DNA of 28,361 nt from Candidatus Hadarchaeales archaeon (GTDB taxonomy: Archaea; Hadarchaeota; Hadarchaeia; Hadarchaeales; Hadarchaeaceae): assembly GCA_038851565.1 (NCBI GenBank), contig JAWCKV010000008.1, forward strand, positions 1 to 28,361, given 5' to 3'. This document shows, piece after piece, positions 3,180 through 28,361 of the stretch. The notes below the pieces were generated by a model, which did not search any database, had not been told where the DNA came from, and was given only the letters and a program-made list of their open reading frames with translations. Within the stretch, counting starts at the first letter, position 1. Every line of letters starts with the position of its first letter. A program made the position numbers and the translations under genes.

Positions 3180-3656
3180 ATGAAGTCGCTTGTCGTCTAC
3201 TACTCCCGCACCGGGAACACGAGATTTGTGGCTGAGACCATTGCTGCCAAACTGAAAGCAGAGATTGAGGAAATAATTGATAAAAAGAGCAGAAGAGGAC
3301 TGCTGGGCTGGCTCGGGGCCGGTAAAGACGCGACGATGGGCAGAGAAACTGAAATAGAGCAGGTCAAACACTCTCCATCGCATTACGATCTGGTGATCAT
3401 AGGCTGCCCCATATGGAACAGGAGATTACCTCCGGCGATTAGGACCTACATGAAAAATAGCGATTTTTCTAAAAACATGGTCGCTTTTTTTAACACAAAC
3501 CGCTCGAATGAGAATCAAAACACCTTTTCCACCATGAAAGAACTCGCGAAAAAAGAACCGTTGGCAAAGCTGGTGATAAGCAGCGCGCTCAAAAATAGAG
3601 AAGCGTCCATAAAGAAAATTGAAGACTGGTGCGAACATCTAAAATCCAAAATCTGA
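3180..3656 (+). CDS. Flavodoxin-family protein
   Basis: MKSLVVYYSRTGNT FMN phosphate loop, YDLVIIGCPIW; start moved to ATG 3180, with TTTTAAA at ~3146 upstream. Confidence 0.88.
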   Translation: MKSLVVYYSRTGNTRFVAETIAAKLKAEIEEIIDKKSRRGLLGWLGAGKDATMGRETEIEQVKHSPSHYDLVIIGCPIWNRRLPPAIRTYMKNSDFSKNMVAFFNTNRSNENQNTFSTMKELAKKEPLAKLVISSALKNREASIKKIEDWCEHLKSKI

Positions 3657-17341: not shown

Positions 17342-20188
17342 TTATTTCCAGCCGAACCTCCTGAAAAGCGCCTCCCTCTCCTGCTCAACTACAAGTTCCA
17401 CCAGCCTCTCCGTTATCCTCCTCTCCTTGGCGAGTATTTTCGAGGCTGATGCGGGAGTTATCCCCCTTCCCGAGAGCACGAATGCTGCCGCTTTTCCGTA
17501 TGATGATATGAGGCCTGACGTCGCTGCCATGTCCTTCGCCAGTCCGGTTTCTCTGCCCGCAGAGGCCATCTCCAGGGCGCTCCTCACCTCATCCTCGGTA
17601 TGCTCGCTCATGCCTATCCTCTTGGAACCGCATTTTGGACACCTCGGTCCCTCTTCGAGCTCCCCTATCGTCATCTCGCGCACGAACTCCCTGCAGTCCA
17701 AGCATGCGAAGGTCCTGACCTCGCTGAGCAACCTGACCTTCGCGGAGGCCAGCGCCAGAAGCCTCAGTCTCTTCGGGGCGGTCGGCTCGAGCGAAGCATA
17801 CCGCTGCTGCAGCGCCACAGCTGAAACAGGAGAAGGCGAATCTCTTGTCCCAAGCGAAACTATTGATATATCTCCGGAGGCTATTTTACTCAGCACCTCG
17901 CTTTTGATGTCAAGGTCCTTCGTTATCACCTCTTTGAAGGCCTCTTCGAAAGCCGGGGTGTCCTTCAGGGCCCTCATGAGCTTATCCATGACCGAACTTG
18001 TGATCTCCACATCTCTGTCAAGAACCCCCATGCGCCTCGCGACCTGGGCCAACCTCCATCTGAAGAACCTGCTGCCCTCAACTATCGCGCGCAGCTCATC
18101 ATCTGTTTTTTTGAGAGCCTCCTTCCTCAGGAACCCGATTACCTCATCCGGCTCAAGACCCTCAGAACGCAGGATCACCCTGTAGGGATCAACGGATGTT
18201 GCAACTGCACGTCCGGAATCCTCAGATATCCTGTGGGCAAGAAGCCTCGCGAGGGTCCTGTTCACGAGGGTTCCGAAGCATGCGCCGAGCACGCACGCAT
18301 CCCTGACCGCCTCGACCGTGATCAGGCTGTCGGCCGGGACCGGAAGCCCTTCTCTTATCTGCTCCTCCACATCGGAAAGCGCGGCATTAAATGTATCTGC
18401 TGAAACACCATACTCCCGGGACAGAATCTCAGACGCCTCTTTCAGGCTCGAGCCAGACTTCAGCATCTCAGCCGCCCTGCCCCTGATCCTGCCAACCTCC
18501 TGCGCGACCGAAAACGGCACTGGAATTTCCTCGCCTATCCAGGTCGGAATCGCGCCCAGAGGGTCATCGTCAGGTTTAACGTAAACCGTGTTCCTGTAGA
18601 CCTGAACTATTCTCCATATGCCTCCACCGATCACAAACCTTGTGCCCGGCTCACCGTACTCCGCCACGAATGATTCATCAAGCACACCGACCGGCTCACC
18701 CTTAGAGTCATCCACTATCAGATACTGCTTCAGCTCAGGTATCATGGAGAGGTTGTTGAAGTAGTAGTCGTATATTCTCTCCAACGAAGCCGGGCGCGTG
18801 AACTCTCCGTTCCTGACCCTGACCAGCCTTTTCTCCAGGCTCTGCGCGAACTCCAGCACCGCCCTGAGCTGATCCTCTCTGAGGTCCCTGAAAGGATACG
18901 CTCTCCTGAAGATGCCCAGCATGTCGCTCATCTTTGCGGTCCTCGATGCCAGCAGCGCTGACACGGAAGCGTGAAGAAGCACATCAAGGGGGGTTTCAAG
19001 GGAGCGGACCGGCTCGAGCTCGCCCCTCCTGGCCTTGGCCGCTATCACTATCGCCTCCAGGGCATCGTCCGGGTCCTGAACGATTATCACTCCCCTTGAA
19101 ACCTCACCTATCCTGTGACCGCTTCTGCCGACGCGCTGGAGGAGCCTCGTGACCTGTCGCGGTGAGTTGTACTGTATCACCAGATCCACCCTGCCGACAT
19201 CGATCCCGAGCTCAAGCGATGACGTGCATATCATTCCCCTGAGCCCCCCGCTCTTGAGCCCGCTCTCGGCTCTGACCCTGGTGAAGCTTGAGAGGGATCC
19301 GTGATGCACGCCGACCGGAAACCCGATATCCCAAAGCCTGAAGCGGCTCGCGAGAGCCTCAGCGGTCGGACGCGTGTTGGTGAAGACCAGCGTCGAGCGG
19401 TGCGCCTCTATGAGTTCCCTCATCCTCCTGAGCCTGGCAGCGACCGCAGGAAAGGTGTACAGCTTTTCCGAAAGCACGATGTCCTGACGCGATGGCTCCG
19501 GGAACACCACGTCCAGCTCCATCTTTTTGGCGAACGTCACGTCAACCACCTCACACCCCCTGCCCTGCCCCACCAGAAATCTGGCGACCTCATCCGGAGA
19601 ACCGATCGTGGCTGAGAGTCCTATCACCTGAAAGTCTCCGCTGATCTCACGCAGCCTTTCGAGGTTGAGCGAAAGCTGAGCGCCCCTCTTGCTGTCAACC
19701 AGCTCGTGAACCTCGTCCACCACGACCCACCTGACGGTCCTGAGGTAGGAGCTCAGCTTTTTGCCAAGCAGAAACAGCTGCAGGCTCTCGGGGGTGGTTA
19801 TCACGACATCTGACGGGGCAAGAGCCTGGGATCTCCTCTCCCTGGCGCTGGTGTCACCGTGCCGGACCGAGACCTTAAGGTCGAGCGCCCTGCACCATCC
19901 CTCCAGCCTCTCGAGCATGTCCCTGTTAAGCGCCCTCAGGGGAGTTATGTAAATGGCCTTGATGCCCCTTTCCCTACCATGCGTCATGAGGAGGCCATGC
20001 AGAACAGGGAGGAACGCGCTCTCCGTCTTACCGCTGCCTGATGGTGATATGAGGAGGACGTTCCTGCCCTCGAGAATCTTGGGTATGGCCATCTTCTGGG
20101 GCAGCGTTGGCTCCGTGAACCCCCTCTCCGCAAGCAGCTTTCTTATCGGCCTCGCCAGCAGATCGAATACGTTTTCAACTTCCTGCAT
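17342..20188 (-). CDS. lhr: Lhr-family SF2 helicase with C-terminal CxxC..CxxC zinc motif
   Basis: SPSGSGKT, TPLRALNRD, TTPESL, DEVHEL, SAT, HHGSLS, TSSLELGIDVG, QRVGRSGH, WIGE; CLDC..CPKC. Confidence 0.93.
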   Translation of the reverse strand: MQEVENVFDLLARPIRKLLAERGFTEPTLPQKMAIPKILEGRNVLLISPSGSGKTESAFLPVLHGLLMTHGRERGIKAIYITPLRALNRDMLERLEGWCRALDLKVSVRHGDTSARERRSQALAPSDVVITTPESLQLFLLGKKLSSYLRTVRWVVVDEVHELVDSKRGAQLSLNLERLREISGDFQVIGLSATIGSPDEVARFLVGQGRGCEVVDVTFAKKMELDVVFPEPSRQDIVLSEKLYTFPAVAARLRRMRELIEAHRSTLVFTNTRPTAEALASRFRLWDIGFPVGVHHGSLSSFTRVRAESGLKSGGLRGMICTSSLELGIDVGRVDLVIQYNSPRQVTRLLQRVGRSGHRIGEVSRGVIIVQDPDDALEAIVIAAKARRGELEPVRSLETPLDVLLHASVSALLASRTAKMSDMLGIFRRAYPFRDLREDQLRAVLEFAQSLEKRLVRVRNGEFTRPASLERIYDYYFNNLSMIPELKQYLIVDDSKGEPVGVLDESFVAEYGEPGTRFVIGGGIWRIVQVYRNTVYVKPDDDPLGAIPTWIGEEIPVPFSVAQEVGRIRGRAAEMLKSGSSLKEASEILSREYGVSADTFNAALSDVEEQIREGLPVPADSLITVEAVRDACVLGACFGTLVNRTLARLLAHRISEDSGRAVATSVDPYRVILRSEGLEPDEVIGFLRKEALKKTDDELRAIVEGSRFFRWRLAQVARRMGVLDRDVEITSSVMDKLMRALKDTPAFEEAFKEVITKDLDIKSEVLSKIASGDISIVSLGTRDSPSPVSAVALQQRYASLEPTAPKRLRLLALASAKVRLLSEVRTFACLDCREFVREMTIGELEEGPRCPKCGSKRIGMSEHTEDEVRSALEMASAGRETGLAKDMAATSGLISSYGKAAAFVLSGRGITPASASKILAKERRITERLVELVVEQEREALFRRFGWK

Positions 20189-25175: not shown

Positions 25176-25886
25176 GTGCGCTTGGACACAGATGCCTGGA
25201 AGAAAACAGCTGCACGCGCTGCCGCGGAGCGCGTCGAGGATGGAATGCTCGTTGGGCTGGGCACTGGTACGACAGCCTCTGAGGCAATAAAGAAAATCGC
25301 GGAACGTAAACCTGACTGTTCATTCGTTCCGTCATCCAGCTCAACGGAAAAGCTGGCAAGAGAGCTCAGGCTGAAACTCACAGATCTGAAGTACGGGATG
25401 AAGCTCGACCTCATGATAGACGGAGCGGACGAGGTCGACCCGGAGCTGAACATGATAAAGGGACATGGTGGTGCTCACACGAGGGAGAAGATACTGGCGA
25501 TGGCGGCGAGACGCGTGATAATCGTCGTGGACAGGACGAAGCTCGTCAGGAGGCTGGGCGAGAGGATGCCCGTGCCGGTGGAGGTGATTCCGTTCGCGCA
25601 CGAGAAGACCATGGAGAACCTGGAAAAGATCGGGGGAAGGCCGATGCTGAGGACCGCGGGTGGCGCTCCATTTGTAACCGACAACGGAAACTATGTGGTG
25701 GATGTCAAGTTCGGGAGAATAGATAAACCTTCCGAGCTTGAGCTGAGGATCAACTCCATGCCGGGCGTGGTGGAGAACGGGATATTCGTTGGGCTGGCGG
25801 ACGAGGTCATCGTGGGGCACGAGGGCGGTTGCTGCGCCATAAGATCGAGGGGAGATTTTGCAAAGTTCATCAGGCTCAAGAAATAA
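25176..25886 (+). CDS. rpiA: Ribose-5-phosphate isomerase A
   Basis: GLGTGTT, IDGADEVD, IKGHGGAHTREK, PVPVEV, TDNGN, GVVENGIF. Confidence 0.97.
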   Translation: MRLDTDAWKKTAARAAAERVEDGMLVGLGTGTTASEAIKKIAERKPDCSFVPSSSSTEKLARELRLKLTDLKYGMKLDLMIDGADEVDPELNMIKGHGGAHTREKILAMAARRVIIVVDRTKLVRRLGERMPVPVEVIPFAHEKTMENLEKIGGRPMLRTAGGAPFVTDNGNYVVDVKFGRIDKPSELELRINSMPGVVENGIFVGLADEVIVGHEGGCCAIRSRGDFAKFIRLKK

Positions 25887-25912: not shown

Positions 25913-26033
25913 GCCGGGGTAGCTCAGCCTGGTCAGAGCGCGAGACTCATAGCTTCGACCGCAGCTGTGAGTGCTGATCCACGGGATGATGTGGGAAATC
26001 TCGAGGCCGCGGGTTCAATTCCCGCCCCCGGCA
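25913..26033 (+). tRNA. Elongator tRNA-Met(CAU) with 46-nt intron at 37/38 (25952-25997)
   Basis: GCCGGGG/CCCCGGC acceptor, CGAGA/TCTCG anticodon stem (A31-U39), CAT 25948-25950, BHB helix CUCA/UGGG; no encoded CCA. Confidence 0.94.
25952..25997 (+). ncRNA. Putative intron-encoded box C/D-type guide for Cm34 of pre-tRNA-Met
   Basis: Guide AGCTGTGAGT 25963-25972, box D CTGA 25974-25977, box C'-like ATGATGT 25986-25992; complementary to ACTCATAGCT 25945-25954. Confidence 0.65.
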
Positions 26034-26090: not shown

Positions 26091-26137
26091 AGGGAGAATT
26101 CAGGAAAACTGGGGTAGGTTTAATAACCAAAGATGGG

Positions 26138-28361
26138 ATGAAGGCCCGCAAAGGCGTCAGACTGTTCGGCGTGATACTGGTTGTCGTGGCAATCACCCCA
26201 CTTATCCTCTTCATGTTCTCCGCTACCGCTCCGGTCGTTTCTGCCAACGGCTATCCCTATCAGGGGAGCGGTACACCGGGAGACCCTTACATAGTCGAGA
26301 ACCTTGAGGGGCTGGACAACATCAGAAACAACCTGTCCGCGCACTACGCCCTGGGATGCGACATAGATGCCTCCGACACGAGGTACTGGAACGACAACGG
26401 TGATGGTGGGTATTACGGGTTTGTGCCCATAGGGACGGAAACTACTCCTTTCACAGGGAGCCTCGATGGTCGTGGACACAAAATCTCAAACCTATACATA
26501 AACCGTCCGGACAAGAACTACGTCGGGCTCTTCGGCTTTATTGCGAAAACCAGCGTGGAAAATGCTGTCCTGAACCTTGGACTTGACAACGAAAACATCA
26601 CCGGGTCTGGATTTGTGGGAGGACTTGCGGGGGTTAACGATAACGGAATCATCGACAACTGCTATGCCACCGGGCCCCACCTAGGGGGTGATGAGGAATA
26701 CGCAGGAGGACTTGTGGGTTATAATTCAGGCTTGATCACAAACTGTTACTCCACCTTTGAGAGCGTGATCGGAAATTACGATGTTGGAGGGCTGGTCGGG
26801 AGGAACGAGGAGAACATTGAGAACTGCTATGCGGTGGTAGAATACGTGGTCGGGATTTCGAATAACGATTATTTCGGCGGGCTGGTCGGCACCAACTATG
26901 ATACAGGGTCCATCAGAAACTGCCATGCCGAAATTAAAAACGTTGGAGGAAACAACAACTATGTCGGCGGCCTTGTTGGGTGGAACGATGGCGAAATTGA
27001 TAACTGCTATGCCACCGTGGACAATGCTGCTGGAAACGATTACGTTGGAGGGCTGGTCGGATTTAACAGTGGATGGATCGATAACTGCAATGCCACCGGC
27101 GACAATGTGACAGGGAAGCGCTGGGTGGGAGGACTTGTCGGACTGAATAATGATAACATAGAGCAATGTCATGCCGATCTGTACAAGCTTGTAGGAGAGA
27201 ACTTTGTAGGAGGGCTGGTTGGGTCTAACGTTGATGGAGAAATTGTGAGCTGCCATGCACACGTGGACAATGTTGCCGGAATCGAGAACGTGGGGGGCTT
27301 GATAGGGTTTAACTCCGGATATTTATATTATTGTTATGCCACCGGGTGCGTTTACGTGAATCCGACGATTGGAAAATATACAGGAGGACTTGTGGGGTAC
27401 AACGAAGCCGGACTGATTTCAAACTGCTATTCCATCGACAACATGTTAGGAAATGATTATTACGGTGGATTAGTTGGACTCAACAACGGGGACATTGTGA
27501 ACTGCTATTCAGTCACGGTATTTTCCGGTGGAGATGACAACTTCGGAGGACTGGTCGGGGGCTCAACCGGCGGGATCATTTCCAACTCCTTCTGGGACAA
27601 CGAGACCTCCGGAAAATCCACAAGCGCTGGCGGCACCGGAAAGACAACCGAGAACATGAAGAACGTCAGGACCTACACAGACACCTCGTGGAGCACCGGT
27701 TTGGACACTCCCTGGGACTTTATTGGAAATCCGTACGAGGACATCGAAAATGCGAACATCTGGAAGATTGGGGCGACAAAGAACGACGGATACCCGATCC
27801 TGTGGTGGCAGAATGCCCCGCCGACAGCTCCGACCTCCCTGACGTTGCCGTCATCCATCAAGGTCACGCAAACTTTGACGGCGACCGCCTCTGGATCCAC
27901 CGACCCAGACAACGACAGCATAACCTACCTGTACATGTTCTACAACGTGACCGACGCCGCCGTGAGGCGTGACTGGAGCGATAACAACAGCTACGTGATC
28001 ACCTCCTCTGACGCGCACGACAACATTGCCGTGTACGTGAGGGCAAGCGATAACATTGAGAACTCTGCCGATCTCGAAAACTGCATCCTCGTGGGCAACT
28101 TTGCCCCAGTCGCATACGATCTAGAGACCGAAGGACAGACCAATCCGACTAACCTGACCACCTACACCCCGACTTTCACCTGGGAGTTCTCTGACATGGA
28201 CGGGGACGGCCAGGTGCAGAGGCAGATACAGGTGGGCACATCTCAGAACGGAAACGACATGTGGGACAGCACACTCTCCACGTCTTCGCAGTCAGCCGTC
28301 TACGCCGGATCGACCCTGAGCAGAGGGGTCACGTACTACTGGAGGGTTAAAGTGTATGACG
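26138..28361 (+). CDS. Large secreted GLUG-repeat protein with Ig/FN3-like domains (3' end truncated)
   Basis: Not in ORF track (no stop). MKARKGVRLFGVILVVVAITPLILFMFSA signal; GSGTPGDPYIV, DIDAS, FTGSLDGRGHKISNLYI, many VGGLVG.N...I.NCYA repeats, FWDNETSG, GYPIL, NAPPTAP, PTFTWEF..TYYWRVKVYD; frame consistent at both ends. Confidence 0.9.
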   Translation, partial: MKARKGVRLFGVILVVVAITPLILFMFSATAPVVSANGYPYQGSGTPGDPYIVENLEGLDNIRNNLSAHYALGCDIDASDTRYWNDNGDGGYYGFVPIGTETTPFTGSLDGRGHKISNLYINRPDKNYVGLFGFIAKTSVENAVLNLGLDNENITGSGFVGGLAGVNDNGIIDNCYATGPHLGGDEEYAGGLVGYNSGLITNCYSTFESVIGNYDVGGLVGRNEENIENCYAVVEYVVGISNNDYFGGLVGTNYDTGSIRNCHAEIKNVGGNNNYVGGLVGWNDGEIDNCYATVDNAAGNDYVGGLVGFNSGWIDNCNATGDNVTGKRWVGGLVGLNNDNIEQCHADLYKLVGENFVGGLVGSNVDGEIVSCHAHVDNVAGIENVGGLIGFNSGYLYYCYATGCVYVNPTIGKYTGGLVGYNEAGLISNCYSIDNMLGNDYYGGLVGLNNGDIVNCYSVTVFSGGDDNFGGLVGGSTGGIISNSFWDNETSGKSTSAGGTGKTTENMKNVRTYTDTSWSTGLDTPWDFIGNPYEDIENANIWKIGATKNDGYPILWWQNAPPTAPTSLTLPSSIKVTQTLTATASGSTDPDNDSITYLYMFYNVTDAAVRRDWSDNNSYVITSSDAHDNIAVYVRASDNIENSADLENCILVGNFAPVAYDLETEGQTNPTNLTTYTPTFTWEFSDMDGDGQVQRQIQVGTSQNGNDMWDSTLSTSSQSAVYAGSTLSRGVTYYWRVKVYD

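Follow-up and report, generated by a model that had tools for sequence, protein, structure and literature searches.

A putative single-motif box C/D guide to the wobble base in the intron of elongator tRNA-Met of Hadarchaeota

Why does the gene for elongator tRNA-Met keep an intron, and could that intron act on the anticodon beside which it lies? The intron of elongator tRNA-Met is among the most persistent tRNA introns of archaea, and methylation of the wobble base is held to prevent the CAU anticodon from misreading AUA. We analysed an intron-bearing tRNA gene at positions 25913-26033 (plus strand) of a 28,361-nucleotide (nt) stretch of DNA, contig JAWCKV010000008.1 of a Candidatus Hadarchaeales archaeon, referred to below as the window. 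The gene scores 60.2 bits with the Rfam tRNA model and carries an insertion of about 48 nt within its anticodon loop; with default settings ARAGORN made no tRNA call at 25913-26033. In our reading, which we regard as likely, the 46-nt intron is a natural single-motif ("halfmer") K-loop box C/D guide that directs 2'-O-methylation of C34 (Cm34) on its own precursor, the sugar of the wobble base probably being methylated before splicing. The intron is not a canonical bipartite archaeal small RNA (sRNA), because the second motif is absent: the bipartite architecture combines terminal C/D and internal C'/D' boxes with two spacers of about 12 nt, and the 46 nt hold no second box pair. The exons and the elements of the guide module are as follows.

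25913-25951, plus strand: 5' exon of elongator tRNA-Met(CAU), tRNA nt 1-37, with C34 at 25948 (Rfam tRNA model; exon/intron script parse)
25945-25954, plus strand: target strand, tRNA nt 31-37 and intron nt i1-i3, across the 5' splice site; 10 base pairs (bp) to the guide
25952-25997, plus strand: 46-nt intron at the canonical 37/38 site (script parse; all 30 full-length loci have an orthologous intron)
25963-25972, plus strand: guide, spacer positions 11 to 2, with G25969 (position 5) opposite C34 (script parse; ortholog pairing)
25973, plus strand: spacer position 1 (G25973), unpaired with the target, a G-U pair with U25992 beside the boxes being possible (ortholog pairing)
25974-25977, plus strand: box D-type CUGA, one base 3' of the antisense; all 30 loci retrieved purely by similarity have it
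25978-25985, plus strand: 8-nt loop TCCACGGG linking the boxes (K-loop form); its length (5-8 nt in relatives) and its sequence both vary
25986-25992, plus strand: box C-type AUGAUGU, its GA (25988-25989) able to face the GA of CUGA; six of seven positions of the consensus RUGAUGA
25998-26033, plus strand: 3' exon, tRNA nt 38-73 (Rfam; script parse)

A sequence-only reading of the window had proposed this module, namely a 10-bp duplex with one G-U pair between the intron and the exon-intron junction, followed after one nt by CTGA, a loop and ATGATGT, with the fifth nt upstream of box D opposite C34. Our script parse reproduced the coordinates of the duplex exactly (the single G-U pair being G25967-U25950), placed each element in that order and agreed that the fifth base 5' of CTGA, G25969, pairs with C25948, that is C34; it also left both flanks of the duplex unpaired (25944 with 25973 and 25955 with 25962). 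Since G25969 pairs with C34 and Cm34 is documented in haloarchaea, the base at this N+5 position faces a nucleotide known to carry a 2'-O-methyl group. The pattern TGAGTNCTGAN{3,13}RTGATG has one match in the window, and none of 100 dinucleotide shuffles contained any. An Rfam search of the intron, with E values up to 10, returned no C/D family, just the tRNA model and tRNA look-alikes.

Conservation was assessed by searching 41 genomes for similarity to the entire gene of 121 nt, with no motif imposed. An intron-bearing gene was found in 33 of them, as 30 full-length loci and three partial or lower-identity matches; two genomes (G031 and G034) carry an intron-less gene and six gave no ortholog. 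All 30 full-length loci show antisense, one nt, CTGA, loop and ATGAT with C34 at N+5, and each of the three partial matches fits the motif pattern applied later. This pattern matches 53 of 66 Hadarchaeota genomes and its reversed control matches none of the 66. The 13 misses comprise the two intron-less genes, one short intron (G041) and ten metagenome-assembled genomes (MAGs), 70-93% complete, with no detectable elongator tRNA-Met gene.

Covariation was followed in 54 distinct sequences, 43 from Hadarchaeota and 11 from other phyla with an ATGAT box, the pairing register being set solely by the distance from CTGA and from the anticodon. In the MAFFT alignment CTGA and ATGAT are invariant in all 43 distinct Hadarchaeota orthologs, and the bases of the hairpin loop between target and guide are unconserved. 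Spacer positions 2-6 are invariant and paired in 43 of 43, and positions 7 and 8 are paired in 41 of 43 each. Opposite the intron the pairs change: position 9 with i1 is paired in 43 of 43 (A-U 19, G-C 17, G-U 6, C-G 1), position 10 with i2 in 43 of 43 (C-G 40, U-A 2, A-U 1) and position 11 with i3 in 39 of 39 (C-G 31, U-A 4, G-C 2, A-U 1, G-U 1), the loops of four sequences being too short to score. Outside these limits pairing ceases, position 1 being paired with nt 30 in one of 43 and position 12 in four of 39. A pair-count tool run on the alignment of the 43 orthologs gave 99.1% paired cells and three compensatory pairs for the guide helix. In shifted registers the pairing of i1-i3 was 5-56% against the observed 97%, and none of 2000 partner shuffles reached the observed value; slid-register controls on the alignment gave 34-46% against 97.5%, and none of 500 shuffles matched the covariation score. 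The shuffle tests are inflated by kinship; firmer evidence comes from the slid controls and from the count of distinct pair types. Left unconstrained, RNAalifold gives as its consensus a guide hairpin that stacks on the anticodon stem. The check named by the sequence-only reading, covariation of guide and target in orthologous introns, thus came out in its favour, with boxes invariant and i1-i3 pairs compensatory in 43 sequences.

The sharp borders of the duplex are informative. According to Yang et al. 2020 (NAR 48:5094, PMC7229835), the archaeal and yeast enzymes leave spacer position 1 outside the pairing and recognise at most 10 nt of substrate, longer duplexes being inhibitory. A duplex bounded at positions 2-11 is what this enzyme ruler predicts; in a free hairpin nothing else would limit its length.

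In the mechanism that we propose, CUGA and AUGAUG with the short loop between them would form a K-loop bound by L7Ae, on which Nop5-fibrillarin would dock. Spacer positions 2-11, the 10 bases upstream of CUGA, would pair with tRNA nt 31-37 and i1-i3, and C34, opposite spacer position 5, would be 2'-O-methylated on its ribose to give Cm34. The guide duplex exists only on the unspliced precursor, because it spans the 5' splice site, and methylation should precede splicing, because the RNA must leave the guide conformer before the endonuclease cuts. The binding of L7Ae, Nop5 and fibrillarin, the methylation and the order of events are what we infer from the sequence comparisons. The window belongs to an 823-kb MAG of 50 contigs that is 86.7% complete, and genes for the core proteins are present in it: Nop5 (PF01798, 230 bits) and fibrillarin (PF01269, 306 bits) lie adjacent on contig C1, and L7Ae (PF01248, 102 bits) lies on contig C6.

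When the exons are joined by the script parse, a 75-nt tRNA with the anticodon CAU results. Its G1-C72 pair and its CGAGA/UCUCG stem are unlike those of an initiator, and a relative's genome that is 95% complete (G010) carries separate genes for an initiator (A1...U72, GGG/CCC stem) and for an Ile2-like CAU tRNA (GGGCCCG acceptor), both intron-less; therefore we assign the gene to elongator tRNA-Met. G010 also contains an extra CAU tRNA-like 3' half (L206, G010:C9:~620-700; CTCATAACCTGAAGG...CCCCCGCA), the 5' part of which does not take a normal tRNA fold; either a non-canonical intron or a split gene may account for this. DNA matching the region comes from hot-spring metagenomes. Four of seven public runs were compared, and the sole clear RNA run (X5) covers just 26406-26674. 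Contigs that span the tRNA retain the intron, their source libraries being probably DNA. Neither a spliced nor a circular joint was seen in the runs compared.

The same intron must also be spliced, and the strands of the two helices that bear on this are the following.

25978-25982, plus strand: 5' strand UCCAC of a third helix, pairing with 25991-25995 (GUGGG); 91.6% paired, two of five pairs with compensatory changes
25992-25995, plus strand: 3' strand UGGG of the central helix of the bulge-helix-bulge (BHB) splicing fold, pairing with C32-A35 (25946-25949), with the AA/A bulge at 25996-25998 (ortholog strands; the stroke marks the splice site)

The BHB helix is CUCA (25946-25949) with UGGG (25992-25995), flanked by the bulges UA/G and AA/A at position 37/38. 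The fold has the 4-bp helix and the two 3-nt bulges of an hBHBh' intron, its inner helix being weak and irregular. Across the 43 orthologs the BHB helix is 98.8% paired, with a 3' strand of UGGG in 21, UGAG in 20 and UAGG in two, and an AAA bulge in 40. The guide duplex and the BHB helix cannot coexist, because both use the four exon bases 25946-25949; in this respect the sequence-only reading, which had stated that the one excludes the other, was right, and both helices are conserved. Their mutual exclusivity and conservation fit a switch in which the precursor would be methylated and then spliced. In ViennaRNA predictions the conformer with the guide hairpin has the minimum free energy (MFE), at -53.4 kcal/mol against -47.6 kcal/mol for the best BHB-enforced fold at 37 C and at -30.6 against -25.9 kcal/mol at 60 C, an advantage of about 5-6 kcal/mol at both temperatures. 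The third helix competes with the BHB helix and with the pairing of the boxes, and it is part of the predicted MFE structure at 60 C; on a relative's contig 25980 changes from C to T together with a change of 25993 from G to A. The loop that bears UCCAC resembles an anticodon-loop sequence, and we speculate that the third helix is a decoy that parks the BHB strand while the guide holds the anticodon.

Is the guide bound to this intron in all Hadarchaeota? In G041, the single genome available for the deepest family, elongator tRNA-Met has an intron of about 15 nt that keeps the UGGG-AA strand of the BHB and has neither guide nor boxes. Splicing can therefore do without the extra 30 nt or so of the intron in the window. 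A stand-alone C/D sRNA is found in the same genome on contig C87, at about 3264-3328 on the minus strand (L232 565-629), in an intergenic gap of about 150 nt. Its layout is GATGATGA-10 nt-CTGA-20 nt-ATGAGGA-12 nt-CTGA, and the variant C box ATGAGGA is the same as in canonical sRNAs of the window's genome. The first spacer is GGAGCTCTTC; the second, at positions 2-11, matches G041's own nt 31-37 and i1-i3 perfectly, with C34 at N+5. This sRNA is one of 25 matches to the short core in its genome, and we judge it not to be due to chance. Within one phylum the same guide is thus encoded in cis, in the intron, or in trans, by a separate gene. For the window's own genome, the search for a stand-alone tRNA-Met guide gave 25 TGAGNNCTGA cores, and the antisense is extended solely at the intron; the near-matches at C17:13792 and at 17501 of the window were rejected as stand-alone guides, since they have no proper spacer and are likely coding. 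On box invariance, the 2-11 limit, the compensation at i1-i3, the core protein genes and the swap in G041, we hold the earlier proposal of a single C/D-type guide toward its own C34 to be strongly supported.

Several points weigh against this reading. The intron has a single K-type motif only, and work by Tran and by Rashid in 2003 is said, judging by its titles, to require symmetric assembly of C/D and C'/D' for efficient archaeal methylation. The C-type box ends in U and not in A. A second antisense in the tRNA-Trp introns of the phylum is not followed by CUGA, so antisense hairpins over the anticodon can occur where no box is apparent, a hint that their role may be structural. In family f5 tRNA-Met is intron-less (G031, G034), and in the search for a stand-alone guide there, with the short-core and the extended patterns, no match had an upstream C box, G028 being only 88% complete; Cm34 may be dispensable in f5 or made in another way. 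The N+5 geometry is built into the motif patterns, so that only the 30 loci of the similarity search test it freely. Finally, all evidence from the organism itself comes from DNA sequence.

How well do other explanations account for the locus? The one that survives best, unlikely as we find it, accepts the same guide and lets it work mainly in trans: an excised, possibly circularised and stable intron ribonucleoprotein would methylate other, unspliced pre-tRNA-Met, or two precursors would swap guide and target. Passages of reviews indeed describe the tRNA-Trp intron of H. volcanii as acting in trans, and from G041 it is clear that the phylum can have a trans guide to this junction. Moreover, in 14 of the 43 orthologs the intron starts with ACC, by which the 10-nt target equals, except at nt 31, the CTCATAACC present in the intron-less initiator and Ile2-like CAU tRNAs of G010 (L204, L205). 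Such ACC-type guides might reach these tRNAs in trans; the window's intron starts with GCT and would not. Against a mainly trans action stand the linker of only 3-8 nt (the loop of family f2 has 3 nt), with which the intramolecular hairpin should form first, the identity of the cis hairpin with the predicted MFE fold, and a target that includes the co-varying i1-i3, which makes the precursor the substrate either way. On the basis of these short hairpin loops we favour action in cis.

A second explanation, which we hold to be quite improbable, sees in the intron a structural or regulatory device: an L7Ae-bound fold would mask the anticodon and the 5' splice site and would time or chaperone splicing, with no methyl transfer. 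The single K motif would suit it, as would the tRNA-Trp antisense over the same region and the switch-like appearance of three conserved helices that exclude one another (guide, BHB, loop-tail); G041 splices with an intron of about 15 nt, so the remaining 30 nt are an add-on. However, such a device leaves unexplained the exact placement of C34 at N+5, the strict 2-11 limits of pairing that match the enzyme's ruler, and the fact that G041 encodes this 10-nt antisense in a separate C/D sRNA. Chance resemblance in an ordinary intron, conceivable in that the box motifs are short, is refuted by the phylum-wide conservation, the covariation and the negative controls, and its probability is negligible.

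The preferred reading, a halfmer guide acting in cis, can be extended to one that we offer tentatively and consider possible. The pre-tRNA would be an RNA device with three states and with a natural halfmer C/D enzyme at its core, Cm34 would license the maturation of tRNA-Met, and the guide would move between cis, trans and absent states within the phylum. In the first, ground state, the guide hairpin would mask the anticodon and the 5' splice site, and the loop UCCAC, as a mimic of the anticodon loop, would park the BHB 3' strand GUGGG. In the second, L7Ae, Nop5 and fibrillarin would capture the K-loop and, in cis, add the methyl group to C34; in the third, reached only after methylation, the RNA would refold into the BHB and be spliced. 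If true, this would provide a living series for the interconversion of intron-borne and free guides.

The element is of a kind already known, close precedents exist and no principle is overturned. For tRNA-Trp such guides are established: one of the box C/D type, borne by the intron of the euryarchaeal pre-tRNA (Haloferax volcanii; sR50 of Pyrococcus), was reportedly described by Clouet d'Orval in 2001 and by Singh in 2004, as cited in reviews. The two systems share the location in a canonical intron, the target in their own C34, a duplex that spans the junction and its incompatibility with the splicing fold, but the tRNA-Trp intron is bipartite, with two guides (to nt 34 and 39) and four boxes, whereas the Met intron holds a single guide with a single box pair within its 46 nt. 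In Pyrococcus a separate sRNA is reportedly predicted to guide Cm34 of tRNA-Met, and the haloarchaeal sR-tMet is said to pair also with the intron-containing precursor. These trans guides serve the same nucleotide with the same enzyme system; they are separate genes, while here the guide lies within its substrate. For haloarchaea, box C/D-guided formation of Cm34 in elongator tRNA-Met by sR-tMet is documented (Joardar 2011 as cited in PMC4033218; title of a supplement, PMC2584109), and a 2014 review terms the tRNA-Trp intron guide "a unique example" (PMC4090602).

The closest precedent is the 66-nt intron of elongator tRNA-Met of Nanoarchaeum equitans, which the accessible text of Randau 2012 (Genome Biol 13:R63, PMC3491384) describes as a stable, abundant RNA that combines a GC hairpin with a box D and an imperfect box C, and regards as a potential C/D sRNA. 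That text names no target, contains the words "anticodon" and "wobble" nowhere and presents neither conservation nor covariation. As far as it describes the RNA, tRNA and intron position are the same as here and there is one box D and one box C-like motif; the window's intron differs in having an 8-nt K-loop where N. equitans has the hairpin, and in its phylum. The background given by the sequence-only reading, with a trans guide for Cm34 of tRNA-Met and guides in tRNA-Trp introns, had omitted this precedent (PMC3491384).

Halfmer C/D RNAs with a single box set direct site-specific methylation in vitro with archaeal proteins, as reported by Yang et al. (PMC7229835), where the question is posed whether halfmers occur in cells. 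With these halfmers the intron shares the single box set, the one spacer, the 10-nt limit and the unpaired position 1. Those described there are either engineered by deletion or are human RNAs of weak expression and poor conservation, whereas the Hadarchaeota intron is natural and conserved through the phylum with a co-varying target (PMC7229835). Our literature search for a published tRNA-Met intron guide retrieved only Randau 2012 for "tRNAMet intron", its scope excluding papers in subscription journals (such as Joardar 2011 and Clouet-d'Orval 2005, Biochimie) that may bear on novelty. Within the literature searched, the occurrence in Hadarchaeota, the C34 target with covariation, the natural 2-11 limit and the alternation between cis and trans in one phylum appear to be new.

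If the guide acts as proposed, the intron of elongator tRNA-Met would have a functional reason, supplying part of the target and, here, the guide as well. A natural, conserved one-motif guide with a co-varying target would also provide a ready minimal system, substrate and guide in one, in which the structure and kinetics of box C/D enzymes could be studied. Moreover, the cis, trans and absent states, together with modules in DPANN archaea, make exchange between intron-borne and free guide RNAs testable.

How far do such modules extend beyond Hadarchaeota? We scanned 185,579 species genomes with a pattern that combines the anticodon loop, an antisense core centred on C34 at N+5 from CTGA, and the T-loop. 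The scan yielded 75 loci, 35 of them in Hadarchaeota (some by identity to family f1), two in bacteria and 38 in other archaea. The two bacterial matches were treated as chance. The 38 archaeal matches comprise ten in Micrarchaeota, seven in Woesearchaeota, six in Aenigmatarchaeota, six in further archaea and three in Poseidoniales or related lineages, the rest being single or double matches in Nanoarchaeota, Nanohaloarchaea, MAGs labelled Methanosarcinales, a Methanobacteriota MAG and a Thermoprotei MAG. The pair between spacer position 2 and nt 31 is present in 34 of the 38 (A-U 18, G-C 16), a covariation that the pattern does not impose any more than it does the boxes and hairpins below, and a C-type box was found in 29 of 38 by a regular expression that missed a few GATGAA forms. 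A stably folding hairpin between the boxes, corresponding to a K-turn with a closed stem, is predicted in 18 of the 38; many DPANN matches replace the window's 8-nt loop by such a hairpin and, a Nanoarchaeota MAG (L095) among them, share the GC hairpin between the boxes with the N. equitans RNA as far as the accessible text describes it. The three matches in Poseidoniales or an "uncultured euryarchaeote" were rejected as chance, since pairing at position 31 fails and the C-type box is absent, and so was one in Micrarchaeota (L105), where position 31 fails as well and the box is just a match to ATGAC.

The window's genome (G000) contains other C/D RNAs. At least two look like ordinary sRNAs, with a terminal stem and a CTGA-3 nt-GTGATGA K-loop, their terminal boxes being variants. 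Strict patterns for canonical sRNAs had returned none and then two weak candidates and were too strict, judging by a K-loop-centred list, which is itself no full census of sRNAs. The loci at G000:C10 ~16637 (minus strand) and G000:C49 ~5089 (plus strand) are paralogous C/D sRNAs with a 6-bp terminal stem and a 3-nt K-loop. Their terminal boxes, ATGAGGA and CCGA, represent a compensating pair of changes, U to G and U to C, and one of their spacers looks, by eye only, complementary to a tRNA D-loop sequence (GAAGCCAGG).

The tRNA-Trp gene of the same genome (G000:C6:11329-11454, outside the window) has a 53-nt intron with the order D' guide, CTGA, loop and ATGATGA that places C39 at N+5. Its second antisense (CCCAYTGGAGC), to nt 30-37 and i1-i3, lies 3' of the C-type box, with no CTGA after it and no evident terminal box C. 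Of the 66 genomes of the phylum, 57 gave a tRNA-Trp match; the 29 distinct sequences parsed from 30 loci (L172-L201) show this intron layout.

A second intron-bearing tRNA gene of the window lies at 1296-1385 on the minus strand; ARAGORN, with introns allowed, calls it as tRNA-Arg(CCT) with a 15-nt intron, which has no box motifs. Upstream of the tRNA-Met gene lies a gene for ribose-5-phosphate isomerase A (25176-25886, plus strand). The downstream neighbour (26120-28360, plus strand) encodes a large GLUG-repeat protein with an immunoglobulin-like domain and continues past the end of the window.

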